Assembly: GCA_030704615.1 (NCBI GenBank)
Contig: CM060731.1
Coordinates: forward strand, 19,468,001 to 19,532,000
Direction of reading: 5' to 3'
DNA length: 64,000 bases
DNA from: Takakia lepidozioides
Taxonomy: Eukaryota > Plantae > Bryophyta
The stretch's first letter is position 1; each line of letters begins with the position of its first letter. This document shows, one piece after another, positions 16,601 through 41,960 of this stretch. The notes beneath the pieces are model-generated. The model had not been told where the DNA came from, did not search any database, and saw only the letters and a program-made list of their open reading frames with translations. The position numbers and the translations under genes were made by a program.

Positions 16601-16673
16601 TTTCGAATATTCAGTGCAAAATGGCAATATGGATGATGTAGAAGTCTTCACAGTCCACCCTGATGCCTCTTGA
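13662..16673 (+). CDS. AGA: N(4)-(beta-N-acetylglucosaminyl)-L-asparaginase (aspartylglucosaminidase), 8 exons, with signal peptide
   Basis: Exons 13662-13736, 14189-14336 (PVVISTW), 14476-14540 ([17 protein letters not shown]), 15004-15183, 15333-15578 (CQPNFW; NHDTIS autocleavage nucleophile), 15875-15933 ([14 protein letters not shown]), 16190-16294 ([16 protein letters not shown]) and 16445-16673. Splice phases are consistent. Confidence 0.93.
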
Positions 16674-18199: not shown

Positions 18200-21100
18200 C
18201 CCCATGTAACTGATGCCCGTGTGCCCAGCTAGGAGCCACGGTGACGAATTGGCTGGTGTCTTCACCATTTTTCTTTGCTCGACGTCACCGGATTGCCATG
18301 GCTTGGTTAAACCTGCATATGTTCGGAATCGATCCACAGAACGGGGCATGGTGCCTGATGGGCCCTCCCAACCTCATCAATGCCTGCAGGCGATCGCCAT
18401 ACTCCCCCAATGCCTTTGTTTGTCCACTGTGCGTCATATGCTTTCTTTGTTGCCGCTTCTTCCTTCCTGATCCGAGTCGCCTCTTGCTTGGCTAATTTTC
18501 TGCTACCCTCTTCTCCCGTGCAATGCGCTGGTCCTCGTGTTTCTTCTCTTTGGCTGTAATTGCTTCCGCCTTGAATCGTGCTTTCTGCTCAAGAAAATTG
18601 ACGTAGTTGTCGCTGGTCATAATTATGGATTTGGAGTAATCGATTAACACTTGTCTATCTTGAGTCGTTCGTCTTGATCTAGTGGGTGCAGGAGCCTCGG
18701 GAAGGGTGAGAAACATGGCTATACTAGTGGGACCCGTGAATGCGAGCATCGAGAGCTCCCTGTCTGGGGCAAGTGGTTGGGATTCCTGGCTGCTCTCATC
18801 ATTAGGGGCCTGACCTGTGGGCCCGTCATCATCCTCCATATGCACATAGTAGTGCATACATTCCTCTTGGGTTTCGGGAACCATGTTGCCTATCACCTCT
18901 TCAATGGCTGGATCTGGTTGCTCGTCCTCATGTGACTGATTGTGATTTTGATCTGTTACAGGTGGATCTTGTGCAAAAGTAGATAATGGCCCTATCTTGT
19001 TTGCCATTGCAGTAGGCCGCAGAGGCCAGATCCCGGTGGTGGAGAATATTTTTTTAATGTTGACTTCTGCCTTCTTCAATCCCAAAGAAACCCATTGCGT
19101 CAGATTCTCTTTCTTTGCGGGCTTCCCTTTGTTTGTTATACTCCATACGTCCCTATAGTTTCGAAATGCAGTCTTGAAGGGCTTGAATGCAGAGACATCC
19201 AGAAGTTGCAGTGCGTGCGACGTATGGGATGACAACGTGATCAGATCGAGTCCAACTGACCTAGCTTGGTGAACAACATTGATTATGACATGGCTGTTAT
19301 GGCCGTCACTACAGCAAATGGGGGGGGGGGGGGGGGGTTGCAACGCCAGCCGCACCCCCACACCTTGCGCGGCGCTAAGCCCGCGACACCGAGCCCGCGA
19401 CGTTTTTTTGCGACGCCCCGGCGTCGCGATCCCCCACTGCGACACCATTACGACGCCCAGCCGTCGTAAGGTGGCATGAAGGGGGAAATAGAGCCCTCGT
19501 TGCGACGGATTTTTTTTCTTGCGACGCCCCGGCGTCGGAAATCCAAATATATATATATATATATATATGTATATGTTTTTTTTTTTTTTTGACGTTGCGA
19601 CGCCTCGGCGTTGCAAAAGCGTCACTAAGGGCGCCCCAGCGCCTCTGCGACGCCAGGGCGTCGCAACAGCATCACCACAATGGGAGTTTGTTTTTTTTGT
19701 TTTTTTGGGCTTTGCGACCCTCAACTTCACAAAAGTGTCGCTGAGGGCACCCCGCGCTGGGACGCCCAACGTTGCGACGCCAATGGGTCGCAACGGCGTC
19801 GCCACAGGGGGTCACAATGGTGTTGTGGTCAGCTTAGGTTATCACAAAGACGTCGCTTGGGGCGCCTGACGGTGGGGAGATGCAACAACGGCAACGACGC
19901 TGGGGCTGGGGCTGGGGCTGGGGCACTAAGGCTGTGGAGGTTGCAACTCCCCGGCGTCACAAGAGAGACCCCTTTAGAAGGAACTTAAAGGAACTTGAAG
20001 GAACTTGAAGAAAATCTTTATATGTATATATGTATATATATATATATATTTTTAGATTGCTTTTGTGATACATAGATGTAGCGTAGGTGTGTTGGTTAGT
20101 TTGTAGTGTCTTAGAAAGGTTATAACGTGGAGGTCTTAGGTTCAAGTATGCATTGCATGATATATGTAGAACAATGAACATATCGCCATTAGACAGAACC
20201 AGAGTCAATGGTCAACGCCGGAGTCAATGGTCAACAAGTTTTTGAAATTTAAATTTTCCCGCCTAAATTCAAATGTACCCCCTTAAATTGTGACGTCCGG
20301 GCGTCGCACTTTGCGACCCCCGGACGGTGCTAATTCTGCATTGCAGAGTAGGCGTCTTTTTTTTTTTTTTTTTTTCCCCCGACGCCCAAGCGTCGCAAAT
20401 CGCGGTTTTGCCTATTTGCGACCCCCATTGGTCGCAAATTTACGACGTTTTTTTGGCGACGGGCTTGCGACGCCCGGGCGTCGCAAAATTTGGTTTTTCC
20501 CCCCTGCCCGAAAAGGGCTGTTTTACAACGCTGCGGCATCGAAAACCCCCCCATTTTCCTGTAGTGCGTCAAGAATCAGCAGATGTCTCATCTCCTCTGT
20601 AATCTCGTTCCCCATGTCTCTAACTGATGCAAGAAAATGTGTGATCCATTTAGAGAATATGATCCCTGTCATCCATGCTTTTGGTTGCATTGCCATTGTG
20701 GCCCCCGTCTCACATGTCTCAATGTAATTACGACGAAAGTGTTTGCCTTTGAAAATGTAAAAAATAAGAATTGAACTACCTACTGCATTAATGCAAGTCA
20801 ATACGGAGAGCCGACTCCCTCTCATCTGCACAAATGGAGTGCACCATGCGAGATCTAGTCTTGGCCAGCACTCTGGCCCCGCCATTTCTTCCTGCCTGCG
20901 CCCCCGACTCGTCACAGTTCCAAATCCGCTCTTGGTCGTAGTTGTTTTTGTTGTATAAATCGCCTAGGTTAGTGTAGAAGCTGTCAACGTTCTCTTGGCC
21001 CTTCCTACTCCAGACCTTGAGCAACTCGTAGGTTTAGATGAGGGTGTCTCTTCCTAAACCAGCGTAGCCATCCAAAACCAGGTATTCCATTGACGAACGG

Positions 21101-21830
21101 TGTAATCCTTAGCTGACAGATCTCTGCCACCTTCAATCTGATCTGAATTAGTGTCAATGGGTGCCCCACATCCCGCATTCTCTCAATGTATGCTACCAAC
21201 AATCGTTCTTCTTCATCAGTCATAACTCTGTGTTTGCCATGACGTCTGCTACGAATGGTTCCATACATGTGGACCCGTAGAGTAGCTGCAGGTATGGTGA
21301 ATTGCCTTGCAGCACCCCAGATTGACGACCCAGCCTTGATTGCTGCCAAGGCGCTAGCAAGAGCTTGGTCGAGCTCCTGATCTGGTACGTGAGTTGATCC
21401 CTTCCCCGCTGCATATCTGGTACGTGAGTTGATCCCTTCCCGGGCTGCATATAATTGGGGCCCTCCATAATTCCTTGCAGGTGTTTGCTGGGATGCTTGT
21501 CCCGAGACTGGAGTTACGTCGATTGGTGGTGGGGACTCCTTAGCAGGTGCCTGATCTGGAACTATAGCCGGTCCTTCGACTCTAGCTGCATAAATGCACT
21601 TCCGTCCACTCCTCGGCCAGGTCTTGTGCCCATGCAAAATTCTCATATTCATCGTCCTCAGACCCCTCGCCTCTTTGCCCTGGCTGCTATGTAGTACCTC
21701 TAGATTCCTCACTCTCACAATCACTACTATCATTATCGTGTTCTTGGGTAGCATTGTGTTCCTCCTCTGTGTCTGGTAGTAATCTGAATGCCTGGCTAGG
21801 ACGGAAATCCATGTCCATCGCTCCACGAAT
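18200..21830 (-). mobile_element. pogo/Tigger-type (Tc1-mariner superfamily) transposase remnant, interrupted by a CACTA element
   Basis: psq-type HTH (AIKAGSSIWGAARQFTIPAATLR), CENP-B HTH (EEERLLVAYI) and DDD triad IWNCDESG / LLILD-GHNSH / LQLLDVSAFKPFK. Frameshifted; termini not located, so ends are approximate. Confidence 0.85.
19307..20566. mobile_element. Non-autonomous CACTA (En/Spm) element, 1260 bp
   Basis: Termini CACTACAGCAAATGGGGGG ... CCCCCCATTTTCCTGTAGTG, 3-bp TSD CGT (19304-19306, 20567-20569) and many subterminal GCGACGCC/GGCGTCGC repeats. Confidence 0.95.
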
Positions 21831-22689
21831 TGCTATTGTAGTAAACTGAAGCGTGTTAAAATGTATGCACTGTAGCAGTATATAAAGTGAACCATGCATC
21901 CTATTTGCATTCATGCCTGACTGCTGTATTAACTGGCCGTTGTCCCAAAACACCCGCCTCCACTTTAAAAAACAAATGAGGAATTTGAAATGAAAATCAT
22001 TAGTCGGTTGTTTAATTAGCTTCACTAATCCAACATTAATTAAGCCCCTTGTACTCCAAAAACACCCCATACTGTACCTAATCCAAAGTAATAATTAACC
22101 TTGAACTACCTCCATTGCAAAAGTGCACAGTTCTAGGATGAAAAGGGTGACTTCATTCATAAAAAATAGGAGACAAAAAAAGGCAACACACACTTTTAGA
22201 TGCCATTACCTTAGGGTAATAGGGATTCACTTCTCAGCTCGTTTTTGGTTCCGCAGAACTTCACGGGATCTTGTGGATTATTGTACACAAAATATTGTTG
22301 GAAAACAATAGGAATAATGTAAGAACTTAATGCTCCGACAGTAGTTTCGTTGGATTTAAGTACCGTAGTGGGATAGCCGGTTAGGCAGAAATTAATTCGA
22401 AAAAAAAGTGCCTAATCAGAATAAATTGACAAGAGTGCCTAATTTTCAAAAATTTCTCTAAAAGTGCCTATGGTATAAAAACTTGAATTTAAATTAGAAA
22501 AACGAATATAAAATTTAAAAAAAATCTAAAGTGATATTCATTTAAAACGTCATCCATGGACTCAATTTTCAATTTTCATCCATGGCAGCGGCTGTATTTA
22601 TATTTTTTTTGTGTTTATTTTGTGGTCATTATTTTTAGTTGCTTAATTTGGAAAAATCCAACCTCTTCTTCCTTCCATAATTAGGGCTG

Positions 22690-24118
22690 GGCAAGCAGGT
22701 TTTGTCAAAGGTAGGTATATCCTTGACAACGTTCTCTTGGCCTAGGAAGCCGCTAGCTTCGTGTCCAAATCTGGTCAGGCTCTAGCTCTCTGGCTCTTTG
22801 ACTTTGAGAAAGCATTCGATAGGGTAGATTGGATTTTCTTAGGGCAGCTCTCAAAAAATCAGGACTCCCGCCCAGCTTCTGTCAAGGGGTTCAAATTCTC
22901 TTGCAGGGAGCCACCAGCAGAATCCTAGTTAATGGTCACCTCTCGAAGGCCTTCCCACTCCAGAGGTTAATTAGACAGGGGTGTCCTCTCGCCCCCTTCC
23001 TGTTTCTCTTTGTGGCTGACGCTCTGGGATATATGCTACAAGCCAACCCGCAAGTAAAAGGTCTGAAGCTAAGAAACCCAAAAACCCAATAATGTAGCGA
23101 GGTTAAAGATTCCATGTTCGTCGATGATACCTTCCCTCTGCTGGAAGCAAATCAATCCTCTCTAGCAGCAGCTCAAGAAACTCTGGCTCGGTTCTGCGCA
23201 GTCTCTGGATTCAGGGTTAATTGGTCCAAAACTAAGGCATTGCTTCTTGGAGACCTCTCCAAATCTGGCATTAGAACCTCTCCCTCTTGGGGGGATCACC
23301 TGGGCCTTGTATGGCTCAAAGAGGGGGAGCCCACCACCCTGCTTGGTCACACATTAACCTCTCCGAAGACCAGAGGCTGGGGCCTACAATCCAAAAACTC
23401 AAACGCCAACTTGCTTATTGGGGTTCGTGCCATCTATCTATCACAGGAAGAGCTCTTGTAGCTAACTAGGTCATTATGACTGGAGTTTGGTTTTTCGCCT
23501 CCTCTTGGGGTCCAGAGTCAAAGATCATCAAGGAAGTCAAGCGCCTGGTCAGGAATTTCATCTGGGGGGCAGGTAACTCCACCAAAAAAAAAAGACCCCA
23601 AATCTTTTGGGCTCAAATCTGTCTCCCCAAAAGAATGGGAGGCTTGGAGGTCCTTGATCCAGAAAAGCAAATCAAAGCTCTCCTTGGAAAATGGCTTCCA
23701 AGATACATAGGGCCGGAGGGGGGCTAGTGGAAGATGATGATCTCTACCACAATTCACAATTCAACACCCCTGCAGCATGTTCCCTGGTTTGCTTAAGATC
23801 GATGGATTGTGCAGGGATTTAACCACAAATCCCCGAGATCACCTCTCTGGTCCTCTATATGGAAATCATGGAACTGCCTAAGACCGTTCCTAACAAAACA
23901 GGAGCCTACGACATTTCAGAAGATATTAAGACAATATTTGTTTCTCAATAATCATTGCCCTCCTATAGCTGAACGTGCTTTAGCTAAGAAGTGGGCAGCT
24001 TGGGAGACGAGAGGTTTCTACACGATCAACCACTGAATCCCTTCAGCTTGCTCTAGTTGGGGCTAACTGTCTCATCTCTGGTATTTCTCAAATTATCTTT
24101 TCCATCCCTAATGCTTGG
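22690..24118 (+). mobile_element. L1-type LINE ORF2 remnant, first half (5'-truncated)
   Basis: GFVKGRYILDNV, DFEKAFDRVDW, RQGCPLAPFLF and MFVDDT RT motifs with stops and frameshifts; ends ..FSIPNAW at a TSD. Confidence 0.9.
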
Positions 24119-27100
24119 TGAGGAGCCCTGGGCGTGCGCGGTCAAGGTGACGGCATAGTAGTCTAGGGGGGTCATGGTAAGTTGCGGTGTAGGTTGGGCT
24201 CACTGAACCGCCTACCTGACTGCGGTTAGTGCATGGGGTCCGTGGTCGTACATGGTGGCTATGATCACTATCTAAGTCCTACCTGCAAAGAGAAATCACG
24301 TACTCCTCTTCACAGGGCGAGTTTGTGTTTCTAAGTCCTACGGTATCCTACAATCTACTCAGTAACTGCCTTCCAAGTCTTTGTGTTTTATTGTCTAATT
24401 CCTACCGCCTAGGCCCCCGAACCGCCTATAGCCGGGACATGTTTTAATCCCTTCACAAGGCACCTGCCGAGCCTAGGAAGACGAGGGAAAATCTTCCTCT
24501 CCCAATGCCCCTCCTTTGCCGAGGGCTTGAGTTCAAGTCACCTCTAATGGAAGGGCCAACGCTTCCTACACCAATGCATAAATACTTTGTTTTAGCAAAG
24601 GAGTGGCCAAAATGCCTATCATTATCCAATAGGTTCACCAAGTTCAAGGTGGTTCTAAGCCCCTCAACTCAACAAGTTCAATCAGTTTAATCAACGCCCT
24701 GCAGGCTATAACAAGCACCACGTGCATCTATCCTATTTAAGCAATTTCGCAAATCAGAAATGCTGGAAAATAAAAAAAATTAAGAAAATCAGAAAAAAAT
24801 ACCTCCCCTGTGGGAAATCATGTGGGGAATCCAAAGATACCCTTGGCGCCTAAAGATGCCCTTGGGAACCATGTGGGAACCCAGTGAGAACAGAGGAACA
24901 CCCGGGAATCGTTCCTTGTCGCGGGGAACTGTCGCGGCTCTATCGGATGAATGAATCTCGCTGAGAGCTCATCCCTGCCACTACATTCGTTAGTCCAGAA
25001 CATGCATGCATAAATAATAAAATAACCACCGGTGGGTCCAAGCCAGATTTCACCCCCTTACATTATTTTAAGGCACTGGTGCGCTTTCCCTCCGTGGAAA
25101 AAATCATCTTCTACCTTGGCTCTGACACAAAGGCTCACTGTAGCCGAGTTTTTAGGACATAGTACTTTCTCTCCTCCCTTGTCTCTCGAGGTCTCCGCCT
25201 CTAGCTCACTGCTCCCAGGCCCGCTTGGCTATTTCATGGAGTCCTAAGAACACTCCCTTCCAAGGTCGTCCTCCCAAAATCCTAGATTTTACCTACCACT
25301 GGCGCCTTAGATAATGGCTCCTAATCCTTAGATGGGTATAAATTGAATCTAATAGCTTGTCAAGTTAAATAAGCACAGTGTGAAAACAGCTAGAATAAAA
25401 CTAGTTATTTATATTTAACACTTGGATTTAGGTCAAGTGTTAAATCAGGTGTCAAGTTTAGTTTGACACCTGGTCCGTCTTATCTTCACGAGAGCGGCAG
25501 TCGCGCAGCTCATCTCTCTCGAGTTGAGCCTGCGCGACCAAGCTCCTGCATGCGTTTAGATTTGAGTGTGCTTATGTAGGGGTACAGGTTGTTGTGGGGT
25601 GGAGTCCCCATAGCTTGGGGTGCCCCTGGCTCGACTACTGTTTTAAAGAGTGATGGTTTGGTTTTCATGTTTTGTGTCAACAGTGTGTTCGTTGGTTTTC
25701 TATCACTCGAGAGAGATGATCTCTTACCTGTGAGTGCAAGGTAGGAGTTGAGGGTTAGCACTTGCAAGATTACCTGTGTGTAAGTAGTGCTTAGTTTGAG
25801 AAGCATATCATTGAATGTGACCACAAGATTCAGCGTGCCCTGAAACGCCTGGAGGATGACGATGCCGGAGCCGCCACTGTTATTACAGTCGCTGAAGCTA
25901 CCAAGTCACCAGAGGCTTTGGAGTACACAAGGAGAGACTTAAAAATGCAGCATGGAGCAGCACTGGCAAGCTGTGAACGCTGATATCTGCACTACCACAA
26001 CGTCCCTAGGATGAATACAAAGTGCCTGGAGTGAAATGGATAGCTGGAGAGCTGCTCAGGCCCATACATTTTGGGAGTTAAAAGTCACATCTGTATGTTG
26101 AAGGCCCAATTCGCCAATGTGCGGAAGAGTGTGGGCATCCGAGTTTTCTAGGAAAGGAGGCCAGTGCTTGGGAAAAGCTGGCTACAAGTTTTGGAGCAGG
26201 TGACGGCCAGGCCTGCGGTACTTTGAAGACGATGATGTAGAGCTTGAAGAGGGTCTGGTTTCGTTGTTGGGGAAGTAGGTGGTACGGGCATGGAATCTGG
26301 AGGACCCCGGCTTGTACGTGGAGAGTTTCGATGTGCTCTTCCCGATCTTGCTTTCAGATGCCTTAGTTGGGTTGTGCGTTTGTTGAAAGGCCAGCTTCCG
26401 GTATAAAGATGCGGGTGTGGACTCTTCAAAGTAGTGGAGAGAAATGCGGGGAGCAGAGGTGCAAAGGGTGATCAAACTGAATGGACGGAGGGGCAACATT
26501 CTTGAGCATAGGATTTGAAGAAATGTTGTGTGATCGATGTGGAGGAGAACACGTAAGCTTATTTTATTCAAACTTTGCCGAGGCCCGTAGTAGAAGTTAG
26601 CTCAACAGCGTGGTGATGAAGGTTTTGGTGGGCACTTCAAGAGAGACGGACAGGTACATATGATATCCATTGTCAACCTGAACTAGATTTGAAAGTGGAT
26701 GGTTCAGATTAGAGTTAAGGATAACTTCAGAGCAGAAGAGCATGGAAGAGCCAAGAACGGTTTCAGTTGCAGAATGGAGAGGAGGTGTTAGTTCTGGCCA
26801 TGGTTCACTAGCTTCGCCGAAGCGAGGAGGGAAGGAGGAAAAGGCAGGAAAATGTCCTCACCAGGTTGTTCGTCATTGACTTGCATGCCACCTCCCCAGC
26901 TAACTTGCACAGTGGCAACGTTCAGGCCATGGAAGTTGCCGAGCTCACTCAGCGGGTGACATCACTTGAGAAGCGTTAAGCTCGGTACCGGCAAGTCTTG
27001 CAGCCAAGATCTCGAATTGAATCGCCAGGCTGGAGATTATGTGCGGTGAAAGTGGCAGAGAAGGTGGCCCGTCTAGAAATCTATGGCGCGCGACGTGCTG

Positions 27101-27480
27101 CCCTTTCTATTCCGAGTTGCTACTGTTACCAACCTTCACACGCAGCGTGCACTCTACCTAGTTCCACCGATATTCAGTCAAGAAGTTTTGGAGTGAAGGT
27201 TCTAGGTTTCCTGGCTTCTATTATCTAACAGGCTTTCGGAGAGCTGGGCAGAGCCGGGTGGTAAGATCACTCCGTTTCGGATCATCCTGGCAAGATGTAG
27301 AGTTTGCAGTCACAAAACACAGAGAGACAGAAATGCTCGAGTTGTCAGCGATTTCGTCCCTGAAGCCGAATTCGTGAAGCTTCTTCCGAGCTCTCTCGCT
27401 TCCATCATTGCAACAACAAACCACATAGTTTCGACTGGGTCACATTCTGGAGAAACGACTCCTTGATCAGTCCAGATCCT

Positions 27481-27754
<274 letters not shown>

Positions 27755-28295
27755 TGAGACAGCCGCCATAGCCCCTAAAGCCCATCCTTCAGCTCTGTAC
27801 GCCCGCAATCAGTACGTCCGCTCTTGCCGCCCTCTCCAACGCTGATAAGCATATGCAAATTCCACCCCCTGCAGGGAGAAAGCATGACCCAGGTGGAAAA
27901 GCATGTAAGGATAGGGGAAGTTTCCAAAGAGCTTCTCACCTTCCTTTGAATTTTTAAATTTGAAAAGAAAAAGTAAAAGAAAAAAGCCCTTTTGATCTAA
28001 GTTAAAGGATTTAGAGCCTAATTGGTCATATCTTTGGCAAATGAACTCCGTTTGACACAGTTTTTGAGGGGATAGCTGCAGAAAGGGGAAATCTACCTAT
28101 CTAGACCTGGTTTTTGTTTTTGGGACTCTGCTAAAAATCTATGGAATTTTTAGAGTGTGAGTGTGCCATGAAAGATCCACATCCTGTTTCTAGAACCTGT
28201 TCTGGTCTATATGAGAGACAAAATCTGGGGATGTACTCCTTGTATGGCTGGGGGAAATGAGGACGTAATTGAAGGGCAGGTCTCTTCTTTAGCCT

Positions 28296-28990
28296 GTGCA
28301 CACAAGGGGACAGATTTATGTTTCCCAAGGAACTCAGACTGATTTGAGTGGAGAACAGTTGGACGAGTTGATTGCATACTGGGAGTCAGGCATTAGCAGT
28401 AGACAACAGACTGCTGTAGTTGGCGTTGAGGGCCTCAATATCGCCTTGGACAGTCAGAACTCTGTTGGAGCCAGCAGTTCTGCAGCTGTAGGTGAAATAC
28501 CAAAGTGGGTGAAAGCTAGGCTTGGAACACAGCCAAAGACAGCCCCGGGGACCAAGGTGTTCAGCCACAAGGCCGTGGTGTACTGGAGCAGAGGAGCAGG
28601 AGCTACACAAGTTTGTGCAATCAGACATGGTTGCAGCCGGATACGCTCTGCACAGGCAACCACGAGCGGGGGTTCATTAGCAATGACATGTTTGTTGTGC
28701 GTGAAGGAGATGCAGTCATTCGCAATGAGGACACCCGCAACCGTCTCAAAGCTTTCGAGTTGAGAGACTATCAGACCCTACCTTTGTTTTCTTTAGTGTT
28801 CAGTGAGCGGGAGATAGGGGAGTATTGCTTTGTCTCTACCTGGCAGAAAGAGGAGGAGGGTTGGTTAGAGCGAGCTACTGTAGCTTGGGACAAGGTTAGT
28901 GGCAGGTTTCTGGACATAGATATACCTCCTACACCTTACCATCATGCAGAGCGAGGCACTTTGAGAGAAGTCTGGCAGTTGATAGCATAG
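28296..28990 (+). CDS. Extra ORF (~230 aa, one frameshift near 28600) upstream of gag, function unknown
   Basis: Overlapping ORFs 28296-28763 and 28613-28990 join into one protein-like sequence on the same strand as gag-pol. Confidence 0.45.
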
Positions 28991-31900
28991 ATCAGGATTA
29001 GATCTTGCTTGGTCGGGCTTCTATTCTTCCCCTCCATCTCTGTACTATTTTCATTACCTTGTACTTGTAGTTGCCAAAGCCTCTCTTGGTGGAGGCCAGT
29101 CAGTCCGGGGTTTTGGGCTGGGATATTCTGCAGGATCAGCATTGCAGCTGGATTTTGGTGTGGGGGTGTTGATGTTTTGATTTCTTGTGTTTGGATCCCC
29201 CCAACACCTGCATGCTTGACTGTGCGCCATGTTGGTTTTGTGTGGGCGCTTGCTTTCATAGGGATTAGGCCGGATTTGATCACCGGTCAATCCTAGAGTA
29301 TGCTGTCGGTGGTGAGGCTGGAGTGATGACCAGCAAGACCACCAGTGTTTCTTCTATGGTGAGGCTGGGTTGATGACCAGCCAACCATAGGAGTTCTTGC
29401 GGTGGATGCAGGTGCAGGTGCCCTGAGCCATTGGGATATGACCCTTAAACTGCAACAGGTGCCCACCCGTGTCACTATTAGATTAGTACTAGAGCCTTAT
29501 AGTGTCACGTGGAGGAGGTGCACATTGTGAGTGTCATTACGGAGTTACCCAAGGGTTTTGAGGGGAGTACGGCTACAGGCAGTAACAGTGAGAGTGGGTT
29601 CACAAGACGAGGTATTCGGTTCAGACCACCTTCACCGCCACCCTCAATTACTGTAGAGTCAGACACAGACTCGGAGGCTTCATCAACAGGTGTGCACTTT
29701 CATTCGCCATTGTTGTGGGACGACATGGAGGAGATGTATGGAGCTACCAAGGGGCCTCGTAGGTACTCTGGAGCTGTGGGCACAATCGAGTTGGATGACT
29801 TTATCCAGGAGTTCGACAGCTGGTGTGATTTGCAGCAGATGCGCAATCCACAGCTATTCACCCCATTCATGGCGTGGAAGGGACTGTTCCAGCATTTGGA
29901 AGGCCCGCTATGGACGATTACCACGAGTTCAGGCGAGGACATGAAGCAGAGATTGAGGAGTGGAGGATGTATTGGTCACCTGACTACGTCTCCATTACTC
30001 GAGGCACGACGCGACCAGTAGCTGCATCAGTACCAATAGCTCCCACTGCCAGCACTAGTAGTGGAGCAAGTAGTGCTGGTACTTCTGCAGGTGGTACCAG
30101 TTCAAAAGGTGCTACTACTCCTCCTGCCACGACTACAACACATGTGCCTAGATTCAACCCGGTGGTGGAGTTCTTCCAGGAGTTGCGGAGGAACTACCAA
30201 GGTGTACGTGCGAAGTTTGCAAGACTTCCAGCGCAAACCCAGTGAGAGCCTGCGAGAGGCGTACACTCGTATGAGGCGCTTGATAAGTGTGACCCAAGGG
30301 GTTACTGAAGCTCAGGCAATCCAGTTTTGGTATGGAATTCTGGACAAGGAGCTCAAGAGAAGGGTGCGAGATGCAACCCTGTTACAAGCAGCCCAACCCA
30401 CATTAGCAGATGTGTTTCTGCTGGCTGAGCGGATTGAGCTCAACATGGTGGAGGAGCGAGTTGTTACAATTGGATTTGGCAAGGACATGCCTGCACGGGG
30501 CACAGCTGTCAGCCCACAGGCACAAGGGACTGCCCAACAGCGTGGTCAGGGGGGCAAGGTTTCCCAACCCAAGTTCCATGGAGCTTACAGGGGACCTCAG
30601 GTGCAGAGGCCCGTGGCATCTTTTGCAGGCCAACAGCAACCAGGGGTGATATGTTGGACATGTGGAGGACCCCATGTCAAGAGAGATTGCCCAGAGAGTG
30701 GCAAAAGGCCGGCACAAGCACAGCCTGCACAGTTGCAGTGTGGGCATTGTGGCAAGTATGGGCATGGAGATGCCCAGTGTTATGACTTGCATCCTGAGTT
30801 GCGCCCAGGCCAGTTCCAAGGGAACAATGGTGGCCGGGGGCGAGGTGGACCAGCCCAGAGAGGACGAGGTGGTCGGGCACGAGGTGCAGGCCAAGGGCAA
30901 GCTCAACATGGCCAAGGACGCGGAGGTCAGGGTGTTGACCAAGGCATGGCCAACCGGCTTCAGCAGCTAGAGCAGAGGCTCGCTGCCATGGCTATAGCTC
31001 AGGCGGTACCGGCTCCCAGGCGGGATGGTCCACCTCCTGCTCCTGAGGGAGGAGATATGGGAGGCATGGGATTCATGTGCGGAGCAGCACTACCACTAGA
31101 GCAGGTGGAGTCTGCTGCAGCCGTGACTCGAGGAGCAGCACGAGTTCCTGAGCCACGAGGTGCAGAGGTGGAGTTGGATCCACAACGTGGGGAGGCAAGC
31201 CGTCAGGCGAGGCTTCCTCAGTCATTCACATTGGCGGAGACAGTGTCAACGCCATCCATGGCACCTAGTTCTCGCCCGACTGTTACCGAGGCGGAGGTTA
31301 CTATGCCATTGGGAGAGCTACACGTGCAGCACTGACACCTGCTACCAAGGCTAGTGCAGCCGGTGTGTTATTGGGGGCAGCCACCTCTGTGTGTCAAGCC
31401 CCACTGTTCTCGGCAACCATGATTGCGACGCCGGGGTAGACCAGCTGCAGTGTTCAGACTAGCAGCAACACTCTGTGAGAGTGGGGAGGTCACTTCATCT
31501 TCTGCGGAGTTAGTGGAAGGTGTAGTGGCAGAGGGATCCTCGATTTGAGGGTCAAGACTGCCACGGCTGCGCCATGGCAAGCTGCAGCTGCCAGGTTGAC
31601 GGAGCTGCCAGCTAGGCCAGCCTTTGAGCGCGCCATGGTGACACCTGGAGTTGTCTTGTTAGACAACCAGGGAGGCATTTTCACTTTGAGTGGACCGGCA
31701 GGCAAGAAGTACCGGCCACTGCGGGTCTTGTTGGACTCGGAGCTCAGCCACTGATGTTGGGCAGAGCTGCTATTGCAGGTTTGGGCCTCATGGAGGCGGA
31801 TATGGAGCCTTGTCCTTTCCAGATACAGACATCTCTGGGAGGATCAGAGCAGGCTCGGGCATGACACGGCATCAGTTGGCCATTAGACTGCAGCCGGATC

Positions 31901-32439
31901 ATCCTAAGATGGCTCAGTGATGCGAGCCAAGGCCATTGTGACAGACGCGGTCTCTTACGATGTCCTCGTTGGTGGGGCAGTGTTATACCCATGGGCTTCA
32001 CCCTGGACTTTTGGGAGGAGTCAGCATCCTACAGGCCTGGATGGCAGTCAGGGGATGGTCGCCGTGCACAGCTCCCTGTGACATTCATTGGGGGTATTGC
32101 GGCTGCCCAGCGGGGCAAGATGCCAACACTAGCCGCCTTTACAGCTGCAGTTAGTTGGCCTGGAGAGTTGCTGGAAGGCAATGCCCATGCAGAGGATGTG
32201 CCACCTCCAGCAGAGCAGGATGACATGCATGGTATGGCGGAGTTGCCTGCCATGGTTGCTCACACTCCATTGTGGGGTACAGCAAGGATTTGCAGCAGGT
32301 TGCTGATCGACGGGTGCAACAAGCCTGGGTAGAGGCTTTTGTACCGTCAGGAGAGGAGGAGAGTGCGGGTATTGCACCAGGACCACCTCAGTTGTCACCA
32401 TTGGATACCACACCTATTGTGTGGCAGTATCCGGATGAA

Positions 32440-33375
32440 GGCATTTGCCTTCTGGACTTGTTTGGCGGGATCAGCACCGGATTGGCTGCTGTGCTACAGG
32501 CAGGTGTGCGGTAAGGCGTTACCTGTATGTGGAGAGGGATGAGACTGCACGACGCGTCTCACTGCGCCATGTGGCTCAGTTGGTACAGCAGTACCCTGAC
32601 TTGTTGCCAGTGTCTGCAGTTCGTGGATACCAACAAGCCTTGCCAGCAGACATTTCTTGTTGGGGGCGCAGATTTGGAGCAGGTTGGCTCCATTGATCTG
32701 GTAGTGGCAGGTTGGCCCTGCCAAGGGCATTCATCAGCGGGCATGGCAATGGATTGCGAGACTCGAGGACGGGTCTGTTTTGGGAGATGGTGCGGGTTTT
32801 GCGCCACTTGCAGCTTCATCAAGCTGTATCTCCAGCATACATCTTGGAGAATGTGCCACTGATGGGTGATTCTCGGGCCAGGGTGATGGCCAGTGTGCAT
32901 CAAGTCCGGTCGTGGCTTGGGTCAGCAGTGTGCTGGATGCAGCTGCAGTGGGGTCACGGGCTCATCGTCCACGGCTTTGGTGGACTAACTTGATGCCACC
33001 CGCACTGCTCAAGCGTGCATTTGATGGGGTGCAGCGGCCAGCACACCTCACCGTGGATGGCATTTTGGACACAGGGAGGCAGTCTCAACGTGTGAGACAC
33101 GATGACCGTTCGCCTTTGGCAGTGGTCAACAGGGTGGGTCAACCACGAGCAGCATTACCTACACTGCTCAGCTTCCCAGGATCCCATGCTTTTCGGGATG
33201 GTGGACCTGGGCCTCTTGTGGGATGCTCAGTTGCAACAGTTAGTGGAGCCTAATGCCGACGAGCGAGCGGGCTATGGGTTTTCCACTGGGACCACGGCGG
33301 TGCCTTCTCTTTCTGAGGCATCACGTCGTCAGGTGTTGGGGCAAGCAATGGATCTCAATTGCTTGACCTGGATTA
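32440..33375 (+). CDS. C5 cytosine DNA methyltransferase domain embedded in the retrotransposon pol
   Basis: Motifs in order across small frameshifts: I LLDLFGGISTG, II YVERD, III ADI, IV DLVVAGWPCQGHS (catalytic PC 32716-32721), V LRDSRTGLF, VI YILENV, VIII AHRPRLWWTN, IX-like EPNADER and X-like RQVLGQAM. Confidence 0.92.
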
Positions 33376-36300
33376 TCAGCTTGGCTATGGCTGAGCAACG
33401 TAGAGTGCGGAGTGCACTTCCCTTGATGGTCTCTCTGCCTACCGAGACGGTACAGGCAGCGAGTGGGGGCGAGCCGGTGAGGACCACGGGGTGTAGACAT
33501 CCATGGCACACGTGGGAGGTGCTCGAGGTTCAGAGGGAGTTGGCAGCCAAGGCAGCTGTGATGGATGAGGTTGGGGATTCTTCTCGGATGAGGAGGTTCT
33601 CAATGATGAGATGATGGGCAGGATGAGGCCTTGTCATTGACTGAGCAGGAGGGAGTACTGCTCAAGAGGTTTAGCATAGCAACCACGGGACGCGTCCTCT
33701 ACCTCTAAGCCCACTGGACTTAAGGTTGCAGTTACGGAGGACAATTGGGAGCCTGACATTGGACCCATTGTCACCGGAGGAGAGAGACGACGTATACGGC
33801 GGTTCCTGAGGGCTTACAGGAATTGCTTTGCCTTCAGTTTGAAGGACTTGGGAGCACTGATAAGGGTCAAGAGATCCGTATTGAGTTGGCCACTGACACG
33901 CCAATTTCGGAGACCCTATAGATACAGTGACATGGAGAGGTCTTTGATTCAGATGAGGACTCAAGATCTCTGGGAGGCAGGTTTGGTGGAGCTCTCTGGT
34001 GGAGAGTATGCTTCAGCCACAGTGATGCCAGCCAAGAAGGATGTCTATGGCAATTGGACGGAGAGACGTATGTGCGGTGATTACCGGCCTGTAAATCGTC
34101 AGACCAAGTCCGATAGGTATGCCATGCCGACACCAGAGGAGATCTTTGATGCCATTGGGCATTCCAAGGTCTTTAGCACGTTGGATTTACGATCGGATAT
34201 CACCAGTTGCCGATCAAGGAGGCGGATAAGCAAAAAGACGGCATTCTGGGGGATCAATGAGCACGGGAAGGATTGCCTATACCAGTGGCGGTTCTTACCA
34301 TTTGGGCTTAAAAACGCTCCCGCTGAGTTTCAAAGAGTCATGGACAGGATTCTAGCAGGGGTGGAGTTTGCTGGTGCTACATAGATGACATCATCATCTT
34401 TAGTGCTACGGTGGAGGAGCATGAGAGACACCTTCAGGGGGTTTGAGCGCTTGAGGGGCGCACGGATTGAAGTTACATCCGGGAAAGTGCAAGTTTTTCC
34501 ACAACCAGATTGAGTATCTGGGTCACATGATATATCCTGGAGGATGGGGGTACAGCAGACTAAGGTAGAGTCCATTGCACAGGTTCCACGCCCCACGGAT
34601 GTGAGCCGAGTTCGAGCTTTCATGGGGTTAGCAAACTATTACAGACGGTTTGTTAAGGGATTTAGTGCCATTGCAAAGGCTCTAACCAAGCTGACCAAGG
34701 TGGACCAGGAGTGGCAGTGGGAAGATGAGCAAGAACAAGCTTTTCAAGAGCTCAAGGCGAGGTTGACCTCGGCGCCCATCTTGAGACGACCTATCAGGGG
34801 GCGTCCTTTTCAGCTGCATACAGATTGGAGCATGCTGGGGCTTGGAGCGGTGCTCACACAGGTGGATGATTCGTAGTGGCTTATGCTAGCCGCTCGAACA
34901 ACATGCAGAGTCTAAGTATAGCTCATATGAGGGAGAATGCTTAGCTGCAGTGTGGGCCGTGGCACACTTCAGGTGCTATCTATACGGCAATCTCTTCACC
35001 CTTGTCACGGATCACCAACCACTCAAGTGGTTGATGGAGTCAGACAAGCTTACGGGGAAGCTTGCACGGTGGGCACTCATCCTTCAAGAGTATGACTTTC
35101 AGGTGGTGCATCGACCGGGTTTGGTCAATCGCAATGCAGATGGGTTGAGTCGCAATCCATGCACGAGCCAACAGGATGACACTGGAGCTCGGTGGCATGG
35201 TGAGACGGACGAGGAGATGGTGCCGGATGGCATGCATCTGCATTTCTGTGTATCTTGGCAAGGGAAGCCAGGTTGGACCTGCAACAGGGATGACTGTAGA
35301 TCAAGTGTCTGAGGACCCTGAGCCAGCAATGAGCAAGGTGGCGCCAAAGATATACATGAGGATTCAGTTGTGTTGGACTACCTCCGCACTGGAGACATGG
35401 CAGCCTGTGACTGCCAAGGAGAGGGATCGGATCCTACAACGAGCCAAGAGGTTCAAGTGGGAGGGGACACACCTGCTCCGAGTGGGAGGATGTCGAGTGA
35501 GGATTGTGCCTCACCCAACACAGCGGGCACGGTTAGTGCGGCATGCCCATGAGGAGTTGGGGCATTTTGGGGTGCGACGCACTCATAGTCTACTGCAGGG
35601 GCAGTATTGGTGGCGTGGTATGCACACAGAGGTGCAACAATTTGTGGCTAGGTGCATGGTGTGTGACAGGGTGCGTGCTTCATTCAACGCCCCTACTCCA
35701 CAATTGCACCCTCTTCCGATCATGGGATTGGGCTACAGGTGGAGTCTTGACTTCGCAGGGCCGTTGCCACTGACCATGCGCCACAACAAGTACGTGTTGG
35801 TGATGGTGGAGCACTTCTCCAAGTGGATTGAATTGGTTCCATTGCCTGATAAGGCTAGTGAGGGAGCTGCGTATGCATTCCTGGATTGTGTGCTTAGCCG
35901 ATTCGGTGCTCCAGCTGAGGGTACTCACGGACCAAGGGAGAGAGAGTTCTTGGGGAAGTTTCAGGCTTTGTGTGACAAGGCCTTGATAGACCACCGCACC
36001 ACTTCTCGGGATCATCTGAGGCCGATGGCTTGGCAGAGAGAGTTGTTCAGACAGTAAAGAGGGGTTTGCCAAGTATGGCTTGCAGAAGGGACACCTAGGA
36101 GATTGGGACCTTCAGTTACCCTGGTTAGCCATGGCTACAGGTTCAGCAAGCAAGCATCACTTGCCTCCTTCTCACCATACTTTCTTCTCTTTGGCCGAGA
36201 GCCGGATTTGCCTACATCCATTCGCAGAGAAGCTGCTACAGTTCTTAACCTTGACGATCCGGACGTGTGGGCACGTGCATGTGAGCAGCGTGCAGAGTTG

Positions 36301-36643
36301 TTCAAGAGAGTCATGCCCATGGCTTTCGAGAACCTTGCCATTGCACAACACCGTGATACGTTGAGGTATGCTACCATACGTGGTGGGGGCTATCGTCCTG
36401 GGGTTCGGGAGATTCAACCCTGGTGACTATGTCTATCTGCAGCAGACTGCTCCTACGACCCTGGATGTGACTGCAGAACGTGTTATTTGAGGGTTCGAGA
36501 GTCTTGCCCTCAGGCGTCTTGGTCTTGGAGGGTCGGGATGGCATAACTTGGAAGGACCATGTGCGTAATTGTGTACCATGTCACCTTCCGAATGTCGATG
36601 GCAGGATTGACCCAAACCTGGCAGTGGTATCTGCAGTTTGAGG

Positions 36644-36787
36644 TGCATGTTGTGTGGGTCTGTTAAAGGGGCAGCCACCATGCTGGTGTGCGATCGATGC
36701 TCTAGAGGTTGGCATATGGGATGCTTGACTCCACCTCTTGAGATGGTTCCAGATGGGGATTGGTTATGTCCACATTGCATTGGATAG
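36644..36787 (+). CDS. PHD finger at the integrase C-terminus
   Basis: CMLCGSVKGAATMLVCDRCSRGWHMGCLTPPLEMVPDGDWLCPHC is an intact C4HC3 PHD, followed by IG and TAG. Confidence 0.92.
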   Translation, partial: CMLCGSVKGAATMLVCDRCSRGWHMGCLTPPLEMVPDGDWLCPHCIG

Positions 36788-37032
36788 TGGGAGTGGATAC
36801 AACCATGGAAGGCTAAAAACGCAAGGCCCAGCTACTAGGAGACCTTGAACACACGAGATCCTGGCTCAAGTTCACAGATTGCAAGACGGCGACTAACGAT
36901 GGGGCTACTCTTGTACCCGGCCCCTTGGTCTATAGAGTTTGAGTACAATAGGGACAGTGATAGAGGACTTAGTACGGCTGTGGATATTACATCTTGTAGC
37001 TATCTGGAGGTAGAGGGACCTATCCACCAGCT

Positions 37033-37100
37033 AGGGGGGCGATTGTGGACTACTTTATTGTGCATATATGTGTGGTGTGGTTTGGACAGCGATGTAGTTG
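37033..37100 (+). other. Polypurine tract and start of the 3' LTR of the DNMT-Gypsy element (interrupted at ~37101)
   Basis: AGGGGGGCGA followed by t-TGTGGAC at 37044; an unrelated TGTAGCG-starting LTR-like sequence begins at 37101. Confidence 0.6.
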
Positions 37101-39268
37101 TGTAGCGATATGTATGCGCACGACAAGCTAAAGGTAAGAATACCCCCCTTTAAGGGAATTTGCAGACGCGTTGCCCGTTGGGTAAAACGCCCCGCCCGCG
37201 TGGCAGGGCGCAGATCTGCGCGTAGCGGTCCAAGTCGTGGACCGCTGCGGTTAACGCCAGCGTCCGCCGGTCCGTCTCAACTTTTGGTTATCCAGCGGGT
37301 AAAGATCCGCACCCTGCTCGCATGCTTCAGGGCCATACGCCTGAGCCACACGGCTGACGTACTTGATCTCAGTACGACTGAAGGTCAGCGCTGGAGCCCC
37401 GCTCCCGTATGTCGTGGCTGGGCCACGGCTGCCTCCACGCTTTTAGTAATCGAGTCCCTACTCTCTAGGCGTAGCACCCGGGCTCCTCCCGGGCTGCTCG
37501 CGACTTTGGGGCAGCTGTTGTCTAGCGAAATTAGCCCGCCCAAATCCCAAGACAAAAAAAATACAACCCACCCTCCCCTAGGCCTCCATGGCTTGCTAGG
37601 GGGGGGGGGGGGGGGGGGGAAATTAGCACATAGTGGCCTTATAGTGGCCTTATATCATAGATCCAGCCTACTGGCCTGCCTCTGCCAGAGCTGGCTATAT
37701 TTCAAATTAGTAATCAAACACAAAGATTCTTTCTTCCAACAATGCAAATACAAACCTCTATTGGTGCCCTTCCCAATAGACTATGGGGTTCTTCCCCTTG
37801 TCACTTCTAGACATGAAAATAGTGGGATTCCACAATGCACTCTCATCTTTTGAAGAGCCTAAATCAGATTTTCAACTTCAAGCTTTGCTTGGAAAATAAA
37901 TGAATCACATACACAAATGGTGAAATGGTAAGATAGGACCAACCTTTCTATGCGAGAGTGCTTGGGATGCTCTATCGACTCAAGTAATGGTACTCTATGC
38001 GGCCTCCACTTGGGCTCTCATCCATAAGTCCATACTAGCCCCTCCTACTCGTCCTCAAGTCACTTTCCTCCACATGAAATTGCCCTCTTCCTTCACAAAT
38101 GAAATGGCTCGAAGGCCCACAAGCTAGGCCACTTGCCTCAGCTTACAAGAATCCTACCTAACTAGGGAGCTTTAAGCTCCACTCCCTAGGATCTAGCCCC
38201 TCCTTAAGCCAAAAAACTATCAAGCACTACAACAACAAGCAAGAGGAAACTAAACAAATGAGCTAGATGAAGAATAAGAGACGCCTTGCCCCTCTTTTAT
38301 ACTGTTGTTGGGCCTAATAGACTAATGGAAAATATTCATTAAACTATTGTTTCCTTGGAGGATCTATAATATAATATTCAACATGGATGAAAAATCGTAG
38401 AGGCAAATGAAAGCTGGCTTTTCATCCATCCAATTGGATGATCAGTTGGCGTGAGTTGTCATTTCATCCATCCAGCTCCTCAAGGCGAATTCCAGGATTA
38501 TCCAAGAAGTAGAAATGCAAATAATAGGCCTTGTGAGTGCCGTTGACTCAATAATTCGGCCCCGCTGCTAATCAGCTCCATAAATCACCAAACTTGGTGA
38601 CAAACTATAATTATATATCCCGTATCAGCCTGTAAATTCTCAGCTCCATCGGTGGTAAAAAATTGCACTTCTCGCCATTCGTCGTATTTTCGCTACAGAC
38701 ATATTTGTGGGTTTTTTGGAAATCAAATCCGTGGTGATGGCTCCGGGGTCTTTGACCCTGCCGCTGAGTCATAGGTTGTCCGGAGTCCCATCCAGTTGTC
38801 CCGCACCGCTAACAAATCCACGCTTAGCCGTTTGAAGTCGTCCTGACCTTTTGTCATTTCGATGCGGCCAATTGCTTTGTTGCGATATTTCATCGCTATA
38901 CATGTCGCTTCCACCAAGTGCCAAGCTCCTAGCTGTGTGTTCCTACTGGACTTGAAAAGCGGGAGAAAAGAGAGATCTCAATCTGGGACTGGAACAGTCG
39001 ACCTGTATTGTTTGGACAGGATTAAACTTGTCGTTTCTGGTACCGAATTGGCAGCCTAATCTGCTGTCGATGCAGCTTCCTACGGTCATCTTGACGCCAA
39101 AGTTCCACCCCATGGTCGTCGCAGACACTGTCTAATTTCCTACGTGCTTTACCAACAATTTCCAGACAACTAACAAACTAACCTGTTTTGGAAGTACAAT
39201 GCCAAAACCGCTTGTCTTATGATCAAAAATGATATGAAAAGAAAAGTGTACCAATATATGCATCTACA

Positions 39269-39820
39269 CTTGGAAGCTCATTGTTAAAGATGGGCCAACT
39301 CAGTTCAAACCCCACCAGTAGGTGCTGCAGGTATCCCCCTTTATTTTAGTTCTCTATATTTCTGGGGTCACCCAAACCATCATCTCTACTTATGGTTTTA
39401 GGGCTCACATTGAGCTTTCAGGTTGCCAATCTCTGGTAGCTCCTGACACCATTGCTCTCCCATGTGCCTCAGTGAGCCCAGCCCGCATTTGTCACTGGTC
39501 CACCCTTGAAAAACTTTTCAACCCCACTGCATCCTGAGGGGCTTCCGTTCTTGCATGGCTGGCAAAAGGAACTTTCGCCCTCATTCGCTTCTCCAACATC
39601 ACATCTTTACATCTTGACCCGACAGAATGGAAATGGAAGTTCGGGGATGACTTCCACCCCCTCTTTGCTTACTCAGCCAAGAGAGGCTACAGGGCACTAC
39701 TCGGGGCAAACCCCCTTAATACCAAATGGGAAGATAAGTGGAGTCACAAAAATTTCAGGGAGGAAAATTGGAAAGACATTTGGTCTCCAATATGGGAAAA
39801 AGCTAAACCAGCTAAGATTA
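39269..39820 (+). mobile_element. Continuation of the L1-type LINE begun at 22690
   Basis: WKLIVKDGP..SPARICHWSTLEK..DPTEWKWKF..KWEDKW..ENWKDIW is colinear with the LINE copy at 56300-56900. Confidence 0.8.
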
Positions 39821-41960
39821 GTGCCGAAAAAACATTTGGCATGAATCCACTTTGGATAATGTGAGTGTGCACCTGATTCCAGCTTCCGGACCTTTCATCT
39901 TGATGCACTTAAGCAAAAGACAGACATACGTATCTGAATCTGCTGAAATGCCTCCTTGGGTTAAAGTCTGTAGAGCCTTTGTCAGTCTGCCTGCCTCACA
40001 AAACATCTTCACATGCCTATAAGTGCCAGAAAAGACATTGTGGACTCCCTCTCTTGATCCTCTTCCAGAAGCTGTGGTCATGGTTGAGGTGCCTGATTTT
40101 ATCAACTGTGCCGTTGCAGCTGCTGCCTTTGGCGATGCAACCATGCACCTCTTTGCATCTGGTAATCTGACAGACATCACCTTTTTGCCTCGGTTATCCC
40201 ACCATTGACTGGGGTCAGGAAAGTATTCAGCTAACTATCCAGCTAACTTGCAGAATTCAACTTGGAAATTTAGGGCCAATTCTGATAAGAGGGCAAAACA
40301 GGGTGAAATGTGTTGAAGAAGGTGCTTTCATTAGCAGCGCCTGTCCATTGTGCCGCTGCTGCTGCGGGGCCCCAGTACATTTGGTACAATTCCAGCTCTG
40401 AAGATGTCGCCATGGACCTCTTTCCCCTTTTCCAAAGCTGCCAGGGCAGTGTTCGGATTGACATTTGGTACAATTCCAGCTTTGATGATATCCCCATGCA
40501 CCTCTTTGCCCTTCTCCAGGGCTGCCAGGTTTGCACAAGCATTGCAAATGCACACAAACATGATGTGCTTCCCTCATCATTTGCTCAGAGGTCTCCAAAG
40601 CCTCCATCCCACATCCCTGATGTGCATACCCTGCAAGCATCACACTCCACGACACCACATCTCGTTCAGCTGTAGTGTCGAACACTCCCTTCACATCCTA
40701 GATGCACCCACATTTTGCAAACATGTCCACCAGGGTATTGTTCAGAATGAAATCTGGTACAATTCCAGCTCTAAAGATGTCGCCATGGACCTCTTTCCCC
40801 TTTTCCAGAGCTGCCAGGGCAGTGTTTAGAATGACATTTGTTAAAATTCCAGCTTTGACAATATCCCCATGCACCTGTTTGCCCTTCTCTAGGGCTGTCA
40901 GGCTTGCACGACGCCACATCTTGTTCAGCCATAGTATAGAACACTCCCTTTGCATCCTAGATGCACCCACATTTTGCAAACATGTCCACCAGGGTATTGT
41001 TTCTGGTCCGCCATAGTGGCTCAAATGGGGACGAGAGATTACCGGTATGATATACAGAGACTTTAGTCTATGAGTTTGCGTGTTTTATACTGCTTTTGTG
41101 CAATGCTCGACCTTGTGTATTGTTAGTTAATGCTTGACAGTTCATATGTATAGTCTCAATCCCTGCTCCTTCATGGATGTTTTGCTGCATTCTTGTGATT
41201 CACTTACAAAGCAGCCAAAATGATCAATGCCCACTCAGTGATGGCTCCTTCAAGGATGTTTGGCTGCATTCTTCACAAGGACACGAACTTACAATGGTCA
41301 AAGAGGTAGAAGTCTGCCGAGAGATCCAGCGCCCAACAACTTCCTTACTGTAATGCAGACGCAACTGATCTTGAGTCCTTATAAGCGACTGGGACTTGCA
41401 ACAAACGCCCTCAACGCATTAGAGCTCGAGGCAACACATGTGAAAGCCCACATTTGCGGGATGGACAAACTTCTTCACCATGTACATTACGAAAACGCCA
41501 CACCTTTGCGATTGCGGTTGTCCCACCATCGTGAAGGATCTGTAAAAAACTCATACCAGAGCTCCGTGCTGCAAATTCAGGGCCGAGGATGAACCCTAAA
41601 GCAAAACAGGCTGAAATAGGTCGAAGAAGAAGGTGCCCTCACCACATTGTCCATGGAGGATTAGACTGACCATGAACCCAAGAAGACCTCTTGTGTGTGC
41701 TGCTTGTGTATGTAGTCAGGTAATCTCGGATTGGTCTGTGAGAATGACCACGGTGCAGCTAAGCGAGCAGAGATTGAAACACGGCCCGTAAGACCAAGCC
41801 GACTCTCCCAAGAACCTTGTAATCATCACGAAGAATACCAAATCATGGTACTAAGCGGAGCCAAGAGCCCACATTTGCACATAATGCGCCCCTGACGCCA
41901 TAAATGCTTGCAGCAATAGGACATGGGCCTCAATTTGGTCTTCGTCCTTCCCACATCACT
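39820..41960 (-). pseudogene. Scrambled PPR paralog fragments, including a PDF half-exon at ~41505-41570
   Basis: HVKMFCEAGRLTKAL, LEKGKEVHGDI and VDMFAKCGCI repeats with stops; ELWYEFFTDPSRWWDNRNRK near 41505-41570. Confidence 0.85.

Follow-up and report, generated by a model that had tools for sequence, protein, structure and literature searches.

The 64,000-nucleotide stretch of the moss Takakia lepidozioides genome analysed here (contig CM060731.1, positions 19,468,001 to 19,532,000, hereafter the window) contains a Ty3/Gypsy-type retrotransposon that carries its own cytosine-5 (C5) DNA methyltransferase (DNMT). Between 31700 and 36787, on the plus strand, it specifies in order a protease (PR), the C5 methyltransferase, reverse transcriptase (RT), RNase H (RH), an integrase (IN) and a PHD finger. 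Very probably a first open reading frame (ORF1) encodes Gag, protease and DNMT and ends at a stop codon, after which ORF2 continues in the same frame with RT, RNase H, integrase and PHD. The original prediction had placed a methyltransferase with motifs I-X and its catalytic residues between protease and RT, on the same strand and apparently within one polyprotein. The domains lie where it put them; the polyprotein holds as far as Gag and protease are concerned, with the DNMT at the C-terminus of ORF1, and fails for RT, from which the DNMT is separated by a conserved in-frame stop. We regard the element as a land-plant variant of a published algal one, from which its bryophyte hosts and the conserved stop after the DNMT set it apart. 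The DNMT is an ancient trait of the family and under selection, and the family is abundant in the moss.

All of the DNMT motifs I (LDLFGGISTG, 32452-32481), II (YLYVERDE, 32520-32543), IV (AGWPCQGH, 32707-32730), VI (ILENVP, 32841-32858), VIII (AHRPRLWWTNL, 32960-32992), and IX and X (EPNADER at 33246 and RQVLGQAMDL at 33327-33356) are present in order, spread over three frames. A search with the profile PF00145, as had been suggested, matches two separate fragments of the window (E 0.002 and 0.001), each under the curated cut-off. An intact natural homologue (P0003) is collinear with the window at 310 of 321 positions across about five frame breaks. Its closest solved structures by sequence are DNMT3A (E 6e-12), then DNMT3B and DRM, and then bacterial enzymes; for its predicted model (pLDDT 93) the top fold match is to DNMT3A-DNA complexes (TM 0.83 by target, E 5e-19). 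Judged by these comparisons, the enzyme domain of the element is of the DNMT3 type, unrearranged and intronless. In 67 sequences from bryophytes and green algae, residues C140, N230 and T288 do not vary and E183, R223 and R225 hardly do. Pfam reveals no DUF3444, UBA, BAH or chromo companion domain in the intact relatives P0003, P0006, P0015 and P0016, in agreement with the earlier statement that the BAH, chromo and UBA regions of host enzymes are missing. A host DNMT3, DRM, MET1 or CMT gene was considered as an identity and rejected, since the companion domains are lacking, the motifs are unrearranged and the domain sits in the gag-PR frame. Contigs aligned to the element often differ from it by more gaps than substitutions (0 substitutions and 11 gaps in 350 nt; 1 and 12 in 669; 22 and 34 in 2173), which suggests a young family and, for many frameshifts of the window copy, an origin in indels left uncorrected in the assembly.

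The DNMT and RT regions are separated by GCA TAG CAA CCA (33674-33685), in the RT frame, and no variant at a frequency of 10% or more occurs at 33674-33686 among family copies. The one contig that spans motif X to the stop is four letters longer than the window, making the distance a multiple of three. Intact relatives, about 1250-1440 aa long, have the order gag-PR-DNMT and stop approximately 90-160 aa past motif X, while the Klebsormidium nitens model (P0140) and P0292 stop 4 aa beyond the DNMT. Both the DNMT end and the RT start could be located in 52 metagenome loci (the loci, given L numbers, are the best 80 of 160); 45 of the 52 have an in-frame stop followed by CAA-Y-Y, namely 32 with TAG CAACCC, 11 with TAA CAACCC and two single variants, so that the single continuous PR-DNMT-RT frame that had been anticipated is not what these loci have. 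Among the other seven, L006 and L057 show the motif once the anchor is set nearer, L052 lacks a stop, L061 reads TAA TAA, and L065, L067 and L077 belong to a decayed distant subfamily. The stop context has been kept even though synonymous sites are saturated (pS 0.73-0.77) between the window and these loci.

The sequence UAG CAR YYA is the type I readthrough motif of tobamoviruses (PMC3542737), and for tobacco mosaic virus (TMV) readthrough in vivo is given as about 10% (PMC2754532). The window stop context matches the TMV motif; together with L056, of a distant subfamily, which reads CAA TAG CAA CCA, it has the type I motif exactly and in frame with the downstream ORF. From this context, from the position of the first in-frame ATG of ORF2 in the window (codon 85, within conserved RT sequence) and from the disagreement among gene-model junctions, we surmise that readthrough is the likeliest route to ORF2, and a probable one. 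The main rival, that ORF2 is instead reached by splicing out the stop, as in Ogre, or by reinitiation, is unlikely. Both the window and the main relative subfamily do have a pyrimidine run ending in AG 3′ of the stop, and several Marchantia and Sphagnum gene models place an intron at the junction, but the AG is in different phases in the window and the loci, no two of the models P0014, P0018, P0021 and P0023 share a joining site, and P0015, P0016 and P0024 simply stop. The linker is otherwise open and in frame, with one stop only, and one contig (X7, RNA by guess, possibly DNA) crosses the junction unspliced. Reinitiation would be favoured by the ATG found two codons past the stop in the main subfamily, whereas the window has no ATG before codon 85 of ORF2.

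Several observations weigh against a conserved readthrough signal. The main relative subfamily, besides its ATG, has CAA CCC rather than CARYYA, differing at the sixth base. All six loci of the distant subfamily (L065-L077) share a second in-frame stop 22 codons on, and only two of the six (L066 and L076, TAA CAA TCA) keep the stop plus CAA. Nor is the stop universal, as P0219, P0220 and P0289 have PR-DNMT-RT in one open frame. An RNA stem 3′ of the stop is weak (z -2.2 in the window, with -1.2 and -1.8 in neighbouring stretches); values in five sequences range from -1.2 to -2.7, and the stem is not seen in the distant subfamily. Finally, the loci are not independent: the 52 with main-subfamily context collapse to 41 groups at 97%, and few samples contributed them.

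The element occupies 25358-37125 of the window, and thus extends well beyond the 31700-36787 of the original prediction, whose domain positions stand. It has no ordinary pair of long terminal repeats (LTRs) or terminal direct repeat in the window; its ends are two different repeats, A and B. At the 3′ side a polypurine tract and repeat B are followed by AGCT, and the 14-mer AGCT+TGTCAAGTTA occurs in the window once only, at 25354 (0 of 100 shuffles), from which we conclude that the copy has the form A-coding-B. The usual start of repeat A in relatives is absent from the window (≤3 mismatches over 20 nt), and the 5′ end was located via the target duplication; the letters at 25358-25400 are similar to those found 3′ of repeat B in other family copies. 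Complete A-coding-B-A-B elements, with A of about 340 nt and B of about 115 nt, are present in L019, L060, L062 and L064, and the shorter A-coding-B form is that of the window, L016, L042 and L078. Target duplications are 4 bp in length: AGCT in the window, TACA in L016, TCTC in L060, CATA in L062 and L064, and TGTT in L078. Relatives begin with TGTCA and end in ACA, with a polypurine tract ahead of B. A canonical two-LTR Ty3/Gypsy structure was therefore rejected because the ends differ, while the TG...CA termini, the 4-bp duplication and the polypurine tract are those of such elements. The split-repeat ends explain why the family would escape LTR finders and standard plant classifications.

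The internal B|A junction (L008 at 11744, L029 at 5188 and L064 at 11753) consists of the end, 2 nt and the start, GACA-GC-TGTC, and resembles an integrase att site. Such a junction may account for the presence of target duplications on both the A-coding-B and the A-coding-B-A-B forms. A simple two-LTR-circle origin of the split repeats was also considered; it accounts for both forms, and the B|A junction is near-palindromic, but it predicts A-B-A at 5′ ends, which no locus whose 5′ repeat was mapped displays, and six of seven A|B junctions are precise.

Over 27870-37125, contigs from three DNA runs reach a depth hundreds to thousands of times that of the flanks, and PR, DNMT and RT are covered evenly; in run X1 the depth is 7-19 in the flank and 13,566-32,709 inside the element. 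The three runs represent two samples, and summed contig depth is not a copy number, so it is read only as a high copy level that includes the DNMT. The methyltransferase is thus not a peculiarity of this copy, its depth equalling that of PR and RT. Relatives with the same gene order, at 65-77%, occur in Marchantia polymorpha, Calypogeia fissa and Sphagnum fallax (the last a gappy model), and more distant ones with the DNMT in the same position in Closterium, K. nitens and Mesostigma. These relatives, and a host gene on the contig that groups with mosses, bear out the suggestion of a land-plant lineage of DNMT-bearing Gypsy elements.

Compared with nine loci of the main subfamily, the window DNMT has a nonsynonymous divergence (dN) of 0.21-0.25 with synonymous sites (dS) saturated, and RT-RH a dN of 0.145-0.25; the codons were kept by a local-identity filter, which introduces a slight bias. 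The DNMT is accordingly under long-term purifying selection, with dN/dS far below 1 between lineages, and does not evolve neutrally. Among close copies dN/dS is 0.6-0.8 for the DNMT, higher than the 0.4-0.5 of RT, a point against the main reading; values of this kind are as expected from decay after insertion and are no evidence of selection.

A DNMT tree of 153 rows places the window with Calypogeia, Marchantia and the metagenome loci (support 95), and K. nitens P0140 falls on the same side together with Closterium and Mesostigma rows (97). Rows in which the DNMT follows RNase H form one side (97), the named members of which, Chromochloris, Haematococcus and Scenedesmus, are chlorophytes. An RT-RH tree of 68 rows gives the same split between DNMT-before-RT and DNMT-after-RNase-H (99), so that the two phylogenies that had been called for agree. 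Both are unrooted FastTree trees without host DNMT3, and the recent capture of a host DNMT envisaged earlier gains no support from trees of that composition. The second architecture is common (P0044-P0066, P0119, P0294 and about 90 tree rows) and has RT-RH-DNMT-IN-PHD in a single open frame; no description of it was found in the literature searched. A PHD finger is fused to the integrase in most relatives of both architectures.

It is highly improbable that this copy captured the DNMT recently and carries it neutrally, or that the contig represents algal or bacterial contamination. The window copy is frameshifted throughout and its 5′ part holds a low-copy tract with host gene fragments, as such an origin might predict, but the depth is family-wide, the DNMT occupies the same position in liverworts, mosses, Closterium, Klebsormidium and Mesostigma, and the DNMT and RT trees are congruent with dS saturated. 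Prokaryote genomes and viral contigs yielded no relative in a pattern scan sensitive to close relatives only, and phage enzymes are 24-31% identical. The contig also carries a PLS-DYW PPR gene and an intronless PTF2/BRF2-like gene of the TFIIB family (11010-12689, minus strand), the top matches of which are in Sphagnum (50-52%) and Ceratodon (47%). In a tree of 21 rows chosen from 58 matches the latter groups with these two mosses, yet stands apart from each (SH-aLRT 99); judged by this gene, the contig is moss and not algal contamination.

The nearest known system is KnitGypsy-Dnmt3, described only in Klebsormidium nitens (de Mendoza et al. 2018, PMC5890265). It shares with the moss element the Gypsy domains in their order (PR, RT, RH and DDE integrase), an intronless DNMT3-type domain, purifying selection and DIRS-like split repeats, arranged A-coding-B-A-B according to its Fig. 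4c legend. The K. nitens model GAQ93235.1 (P0140) has the order zinc knuckle-protease-DNMT and is 37% identical to the bryophyte DNMT over 322 aa. The moss element differs in its land-plant host and very high copy level. Its DNMT ends ORF1 at a conserved stop, whereas the text on KnitGypsy-Dnmt3 places the DNMT in the Pol ORF, and that text makes no mention of a PHD finger on the integrase or of 4-bp target duplications (PMC5890265). SymbioDIRS-Dnmt3 is likewise a retroelement with a C5 methyltransferase of DNMT3 type, active on CG, but it and SymbioLINE-Dnmt have tyrosine recombinase or LINE backbones (PMC5890265). A DIRS/PAT assignment of the moss element was rejected, since rve and H2C2 domains are present and the ORFs scanned gave no tyrosine recombinase match. 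EpiLTRs also bear C5 methyltransferases, but these are sister to DNMT4 and accompanied by DAM and a chromodomain (bioRxiv 10.64898/2026.05.21.726589). The host DNMT3 proteins of plants (PpDNMT3a/b; Yaari et al. 2019, PMC6453930) have an unrearranged DNMT3-type catalytic domain as the element does; they carry a C-terminal DUF3444, whereas the element domain has none and sits in the gag-PR ORF. In Ogre and other two-ORF plant Ty3/Gypsy elements the ORF break falls after protease and before RT, as here, but Ogre removes a multi-stop intron, unlike the single stop of the moss element (REXdb, PMC6317226); the words "methyltransferase", "methylase" and "PHD" do not occur in the REXdb main text.

No paper on land-plant or chlorophyte DNMT3-Gypsy elements was found in literature from which subscription journals are largely missing, and passages of PMC6453930, PMC10508981, PMC3441728, bioRxiv 363937 and bioRxiv 2021.11.30.470311 report no bryophyte DNMT-Gypsy element. 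Two works (PMC12344493 and bioRxiv 10.64898/2026.05.21.726589) speak of "streptophytes", citing PMC5890265, and their figures and supplements could include land-plant sequences. With the present data, the range of Gypsy elements that bear a DNMT3 grows from one alga to take in mosses and liverworts, the genetic model Marchantia among them. Five Marchantia gene models, Mp_4g09160, Mp_8g17980, Mp_6g11220, Mp_2g26090 and Mp_8g15430 (P0015, P0016, P0018, P0028 and P0029), are retrotransposon ORFs annotated as host genes, and such annotation can inflate DNMT counts in bryophyte genomes.

Ty3/Gypsy polyproteins are cut into domains by their protease. In the mechanism we propose, translation of ORF1 would yield Gag, protease and DNMT in equal amounts, and a minority of ribosomes would read through UAG CAA CCA and add RT-RH-IN-PHD. 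Particles would receive the DNMT at levels like those of Gag, exceeding those of the copying enzymes, and inside them the protease would free the DNMT. There it would methylate cytosines of the nascent cDNA of the element, before or at integration, and the PHD finger would guide target choice; the benefit may be that new copies arrive pre-marked like host DNA, or pre-dampened. Readthrough, protease release, cDNA methylation and PHD-guided targeting are all steps that we infer. Since the DNMT would be abundant in the particle where the cDNA is made, the cDNA is the favoured substrate, in line with the proposal of de Mendoza et al. for the elements they described (PMC5890265); methylation of the element's own cDNA, the likeliest of the readings considered, we regard as evenly poised. 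The conserved stop predicts both the stoichiometry of the enzyme and its place of action, and the question of why transposons carry an enzyme that silences them becomes testable with existing methylation mutants.

In favour of an active enzyme, the DNMT3 domains of Symbiodinium retrotransposons methylate CG de novo in yeast (PMC5890265). Two findings count against methylation of the cDNA. The KnitGypsy-Dnmt3 domain, the closest enzyme tested, gave no methylation in yeast, a result its authors call inconclusive (PMC5890265). The observed/expected CpG ratio of the element (0.50) is close to that of the window (0.48), so there is no footprint of self-methylation and no CpG depletion beyond the host background. 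Both would suit a DNMT kept for a non-catalytic or non-cDNA role, such as nucleic-acid binding in the particle, RNA methylation or competition with host DNMT3, but the catalytic residues are invariant or nearly so in the 67 sequences and the predicted fold of the homologue matches DNA-bound DNMT3A, and we consider this role improbable. We rank somewhat lower still the idea that the enzyme is active but, brought in together with the integrase-PHD, works chiefly on chromatin in or near the insertion site, or in trans on host DNA. The fusion of PHD to integrase in most relatives would fit it, and a readthrough product would join DNMT and PHD in one precursor; however, with a low-rate leaky stop most of the DNMT would be made without PHD, and the protease is expected to separate the domains. 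The PHD finger itself has no obvious aromatic cage and presumably resembles readers of unmethylated H3K4.

Only tentatively, and with considerable doubt as to the whole, do we combine methylation of the cDNA with the other features into an ancient green-plant lineage of retrotransposons. Such a lineage would have held an active DNMT3 for de novo methylation since a time earlier than land plants and would have moved it between two polyprotein positions (in chlorophytes after RNase H, in streptophytes before RT), with a leaky stop in bryophytes loading the DNMT at Gag levels and copies integrating pre-methylated and PHD-guided. It would possibly give the host a second source of de novo methylation, which in the moss genome would reside in many young copies.

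Features of the element and its surroundings, in window coordinates
Feature	Position	Strand	Basis or remark
Tc5/pogo-type transposase DNA-binding region	21008-21832	-	
5′ target-site duplication AGCT	25354-25357	+	same as 37126-37129
Element 5′ end, start of repeat A (TGTCA...)	25358-25400	+	TGTCA start as in repeat A of relatives
Low-copy tract within element	26000-27870	.	read depth at flank level
High-copy 5′ region	27870-29724	+	depth rises from 27870
gag, two zinc knuckles (30652-30690, 30739-30780)	29725-31340	+	residue 1 of Marchantia P0015 at 29725, 85% over 61 aa
Aspartic protease, VLLDS at 31725-31739	31690-32045	+	collinear with P0006 and P0015; PF13650/PF13975 in relatives
DNMT3-type C5 methyltransferase (predicted), motifs I-X, C-terminal domain of ORF1	32437-33400	+	about 5 frame shifts in assembly
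In-frame stop TAG, then CAA CCA (CARYYA context)	33677-33685	+	kept in family copies and relative loci
Possible stem-loop 3′ of stop	33690-33792	+	z -2.2
RT and RNase H	33746-35100	+	PF00078, PF17917, PF17919; YIDD at 34378
DDE integrase with H2C2 zinc domain	35515-36420	+	PF17921, PF00665; HH-CC 35548-35670, core 35740
PHD finger, integrase C-terminus	36638-36784	+	PF00628 E 2.7e-12; ORF2 stop 36785-36787
Polypurine tract AGGGGGGCGA	37033-37042	+	same tract ahead of repeat B in 12/12 relatives printed
Repeat B, element 3′ end (...CGACA)	37043-37125	+	homologous to repeat B of L019, L060, L062, L064, L078
3′ target-site duplication AGCT	37126-37129	+	matches 5′ AGCT
Intact PLS-E-DYW PPR gene	49666-52623	-	303-nt repeat period
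LINE-type RT fragment	57195-58489	-	

The low-copy tract of the element contains two joined fragments of ribosomal protein uL2 at 27364-27754 (PF03947, E 1e-9 and 6e-5), possibly host mRNA captured via template switching. Upstream of gag, at 28293-28990, is a high-copy ORF-like stretch, possibly an extra ORF, which has no Pfam match and no counterpart in the metagenome loci; its part at 28293-28760 has no protein-atlas match of at least 0.8. A repeat of lower copy level (depth 10-30 times the flank) lies at 37200-39100, directly 3′ of the element. Broken pieces paralogous to the PPR gene are found at 39800-41100 and 61300-64000, and a segment near 39900-41900 is duplicated near 52200-53400.

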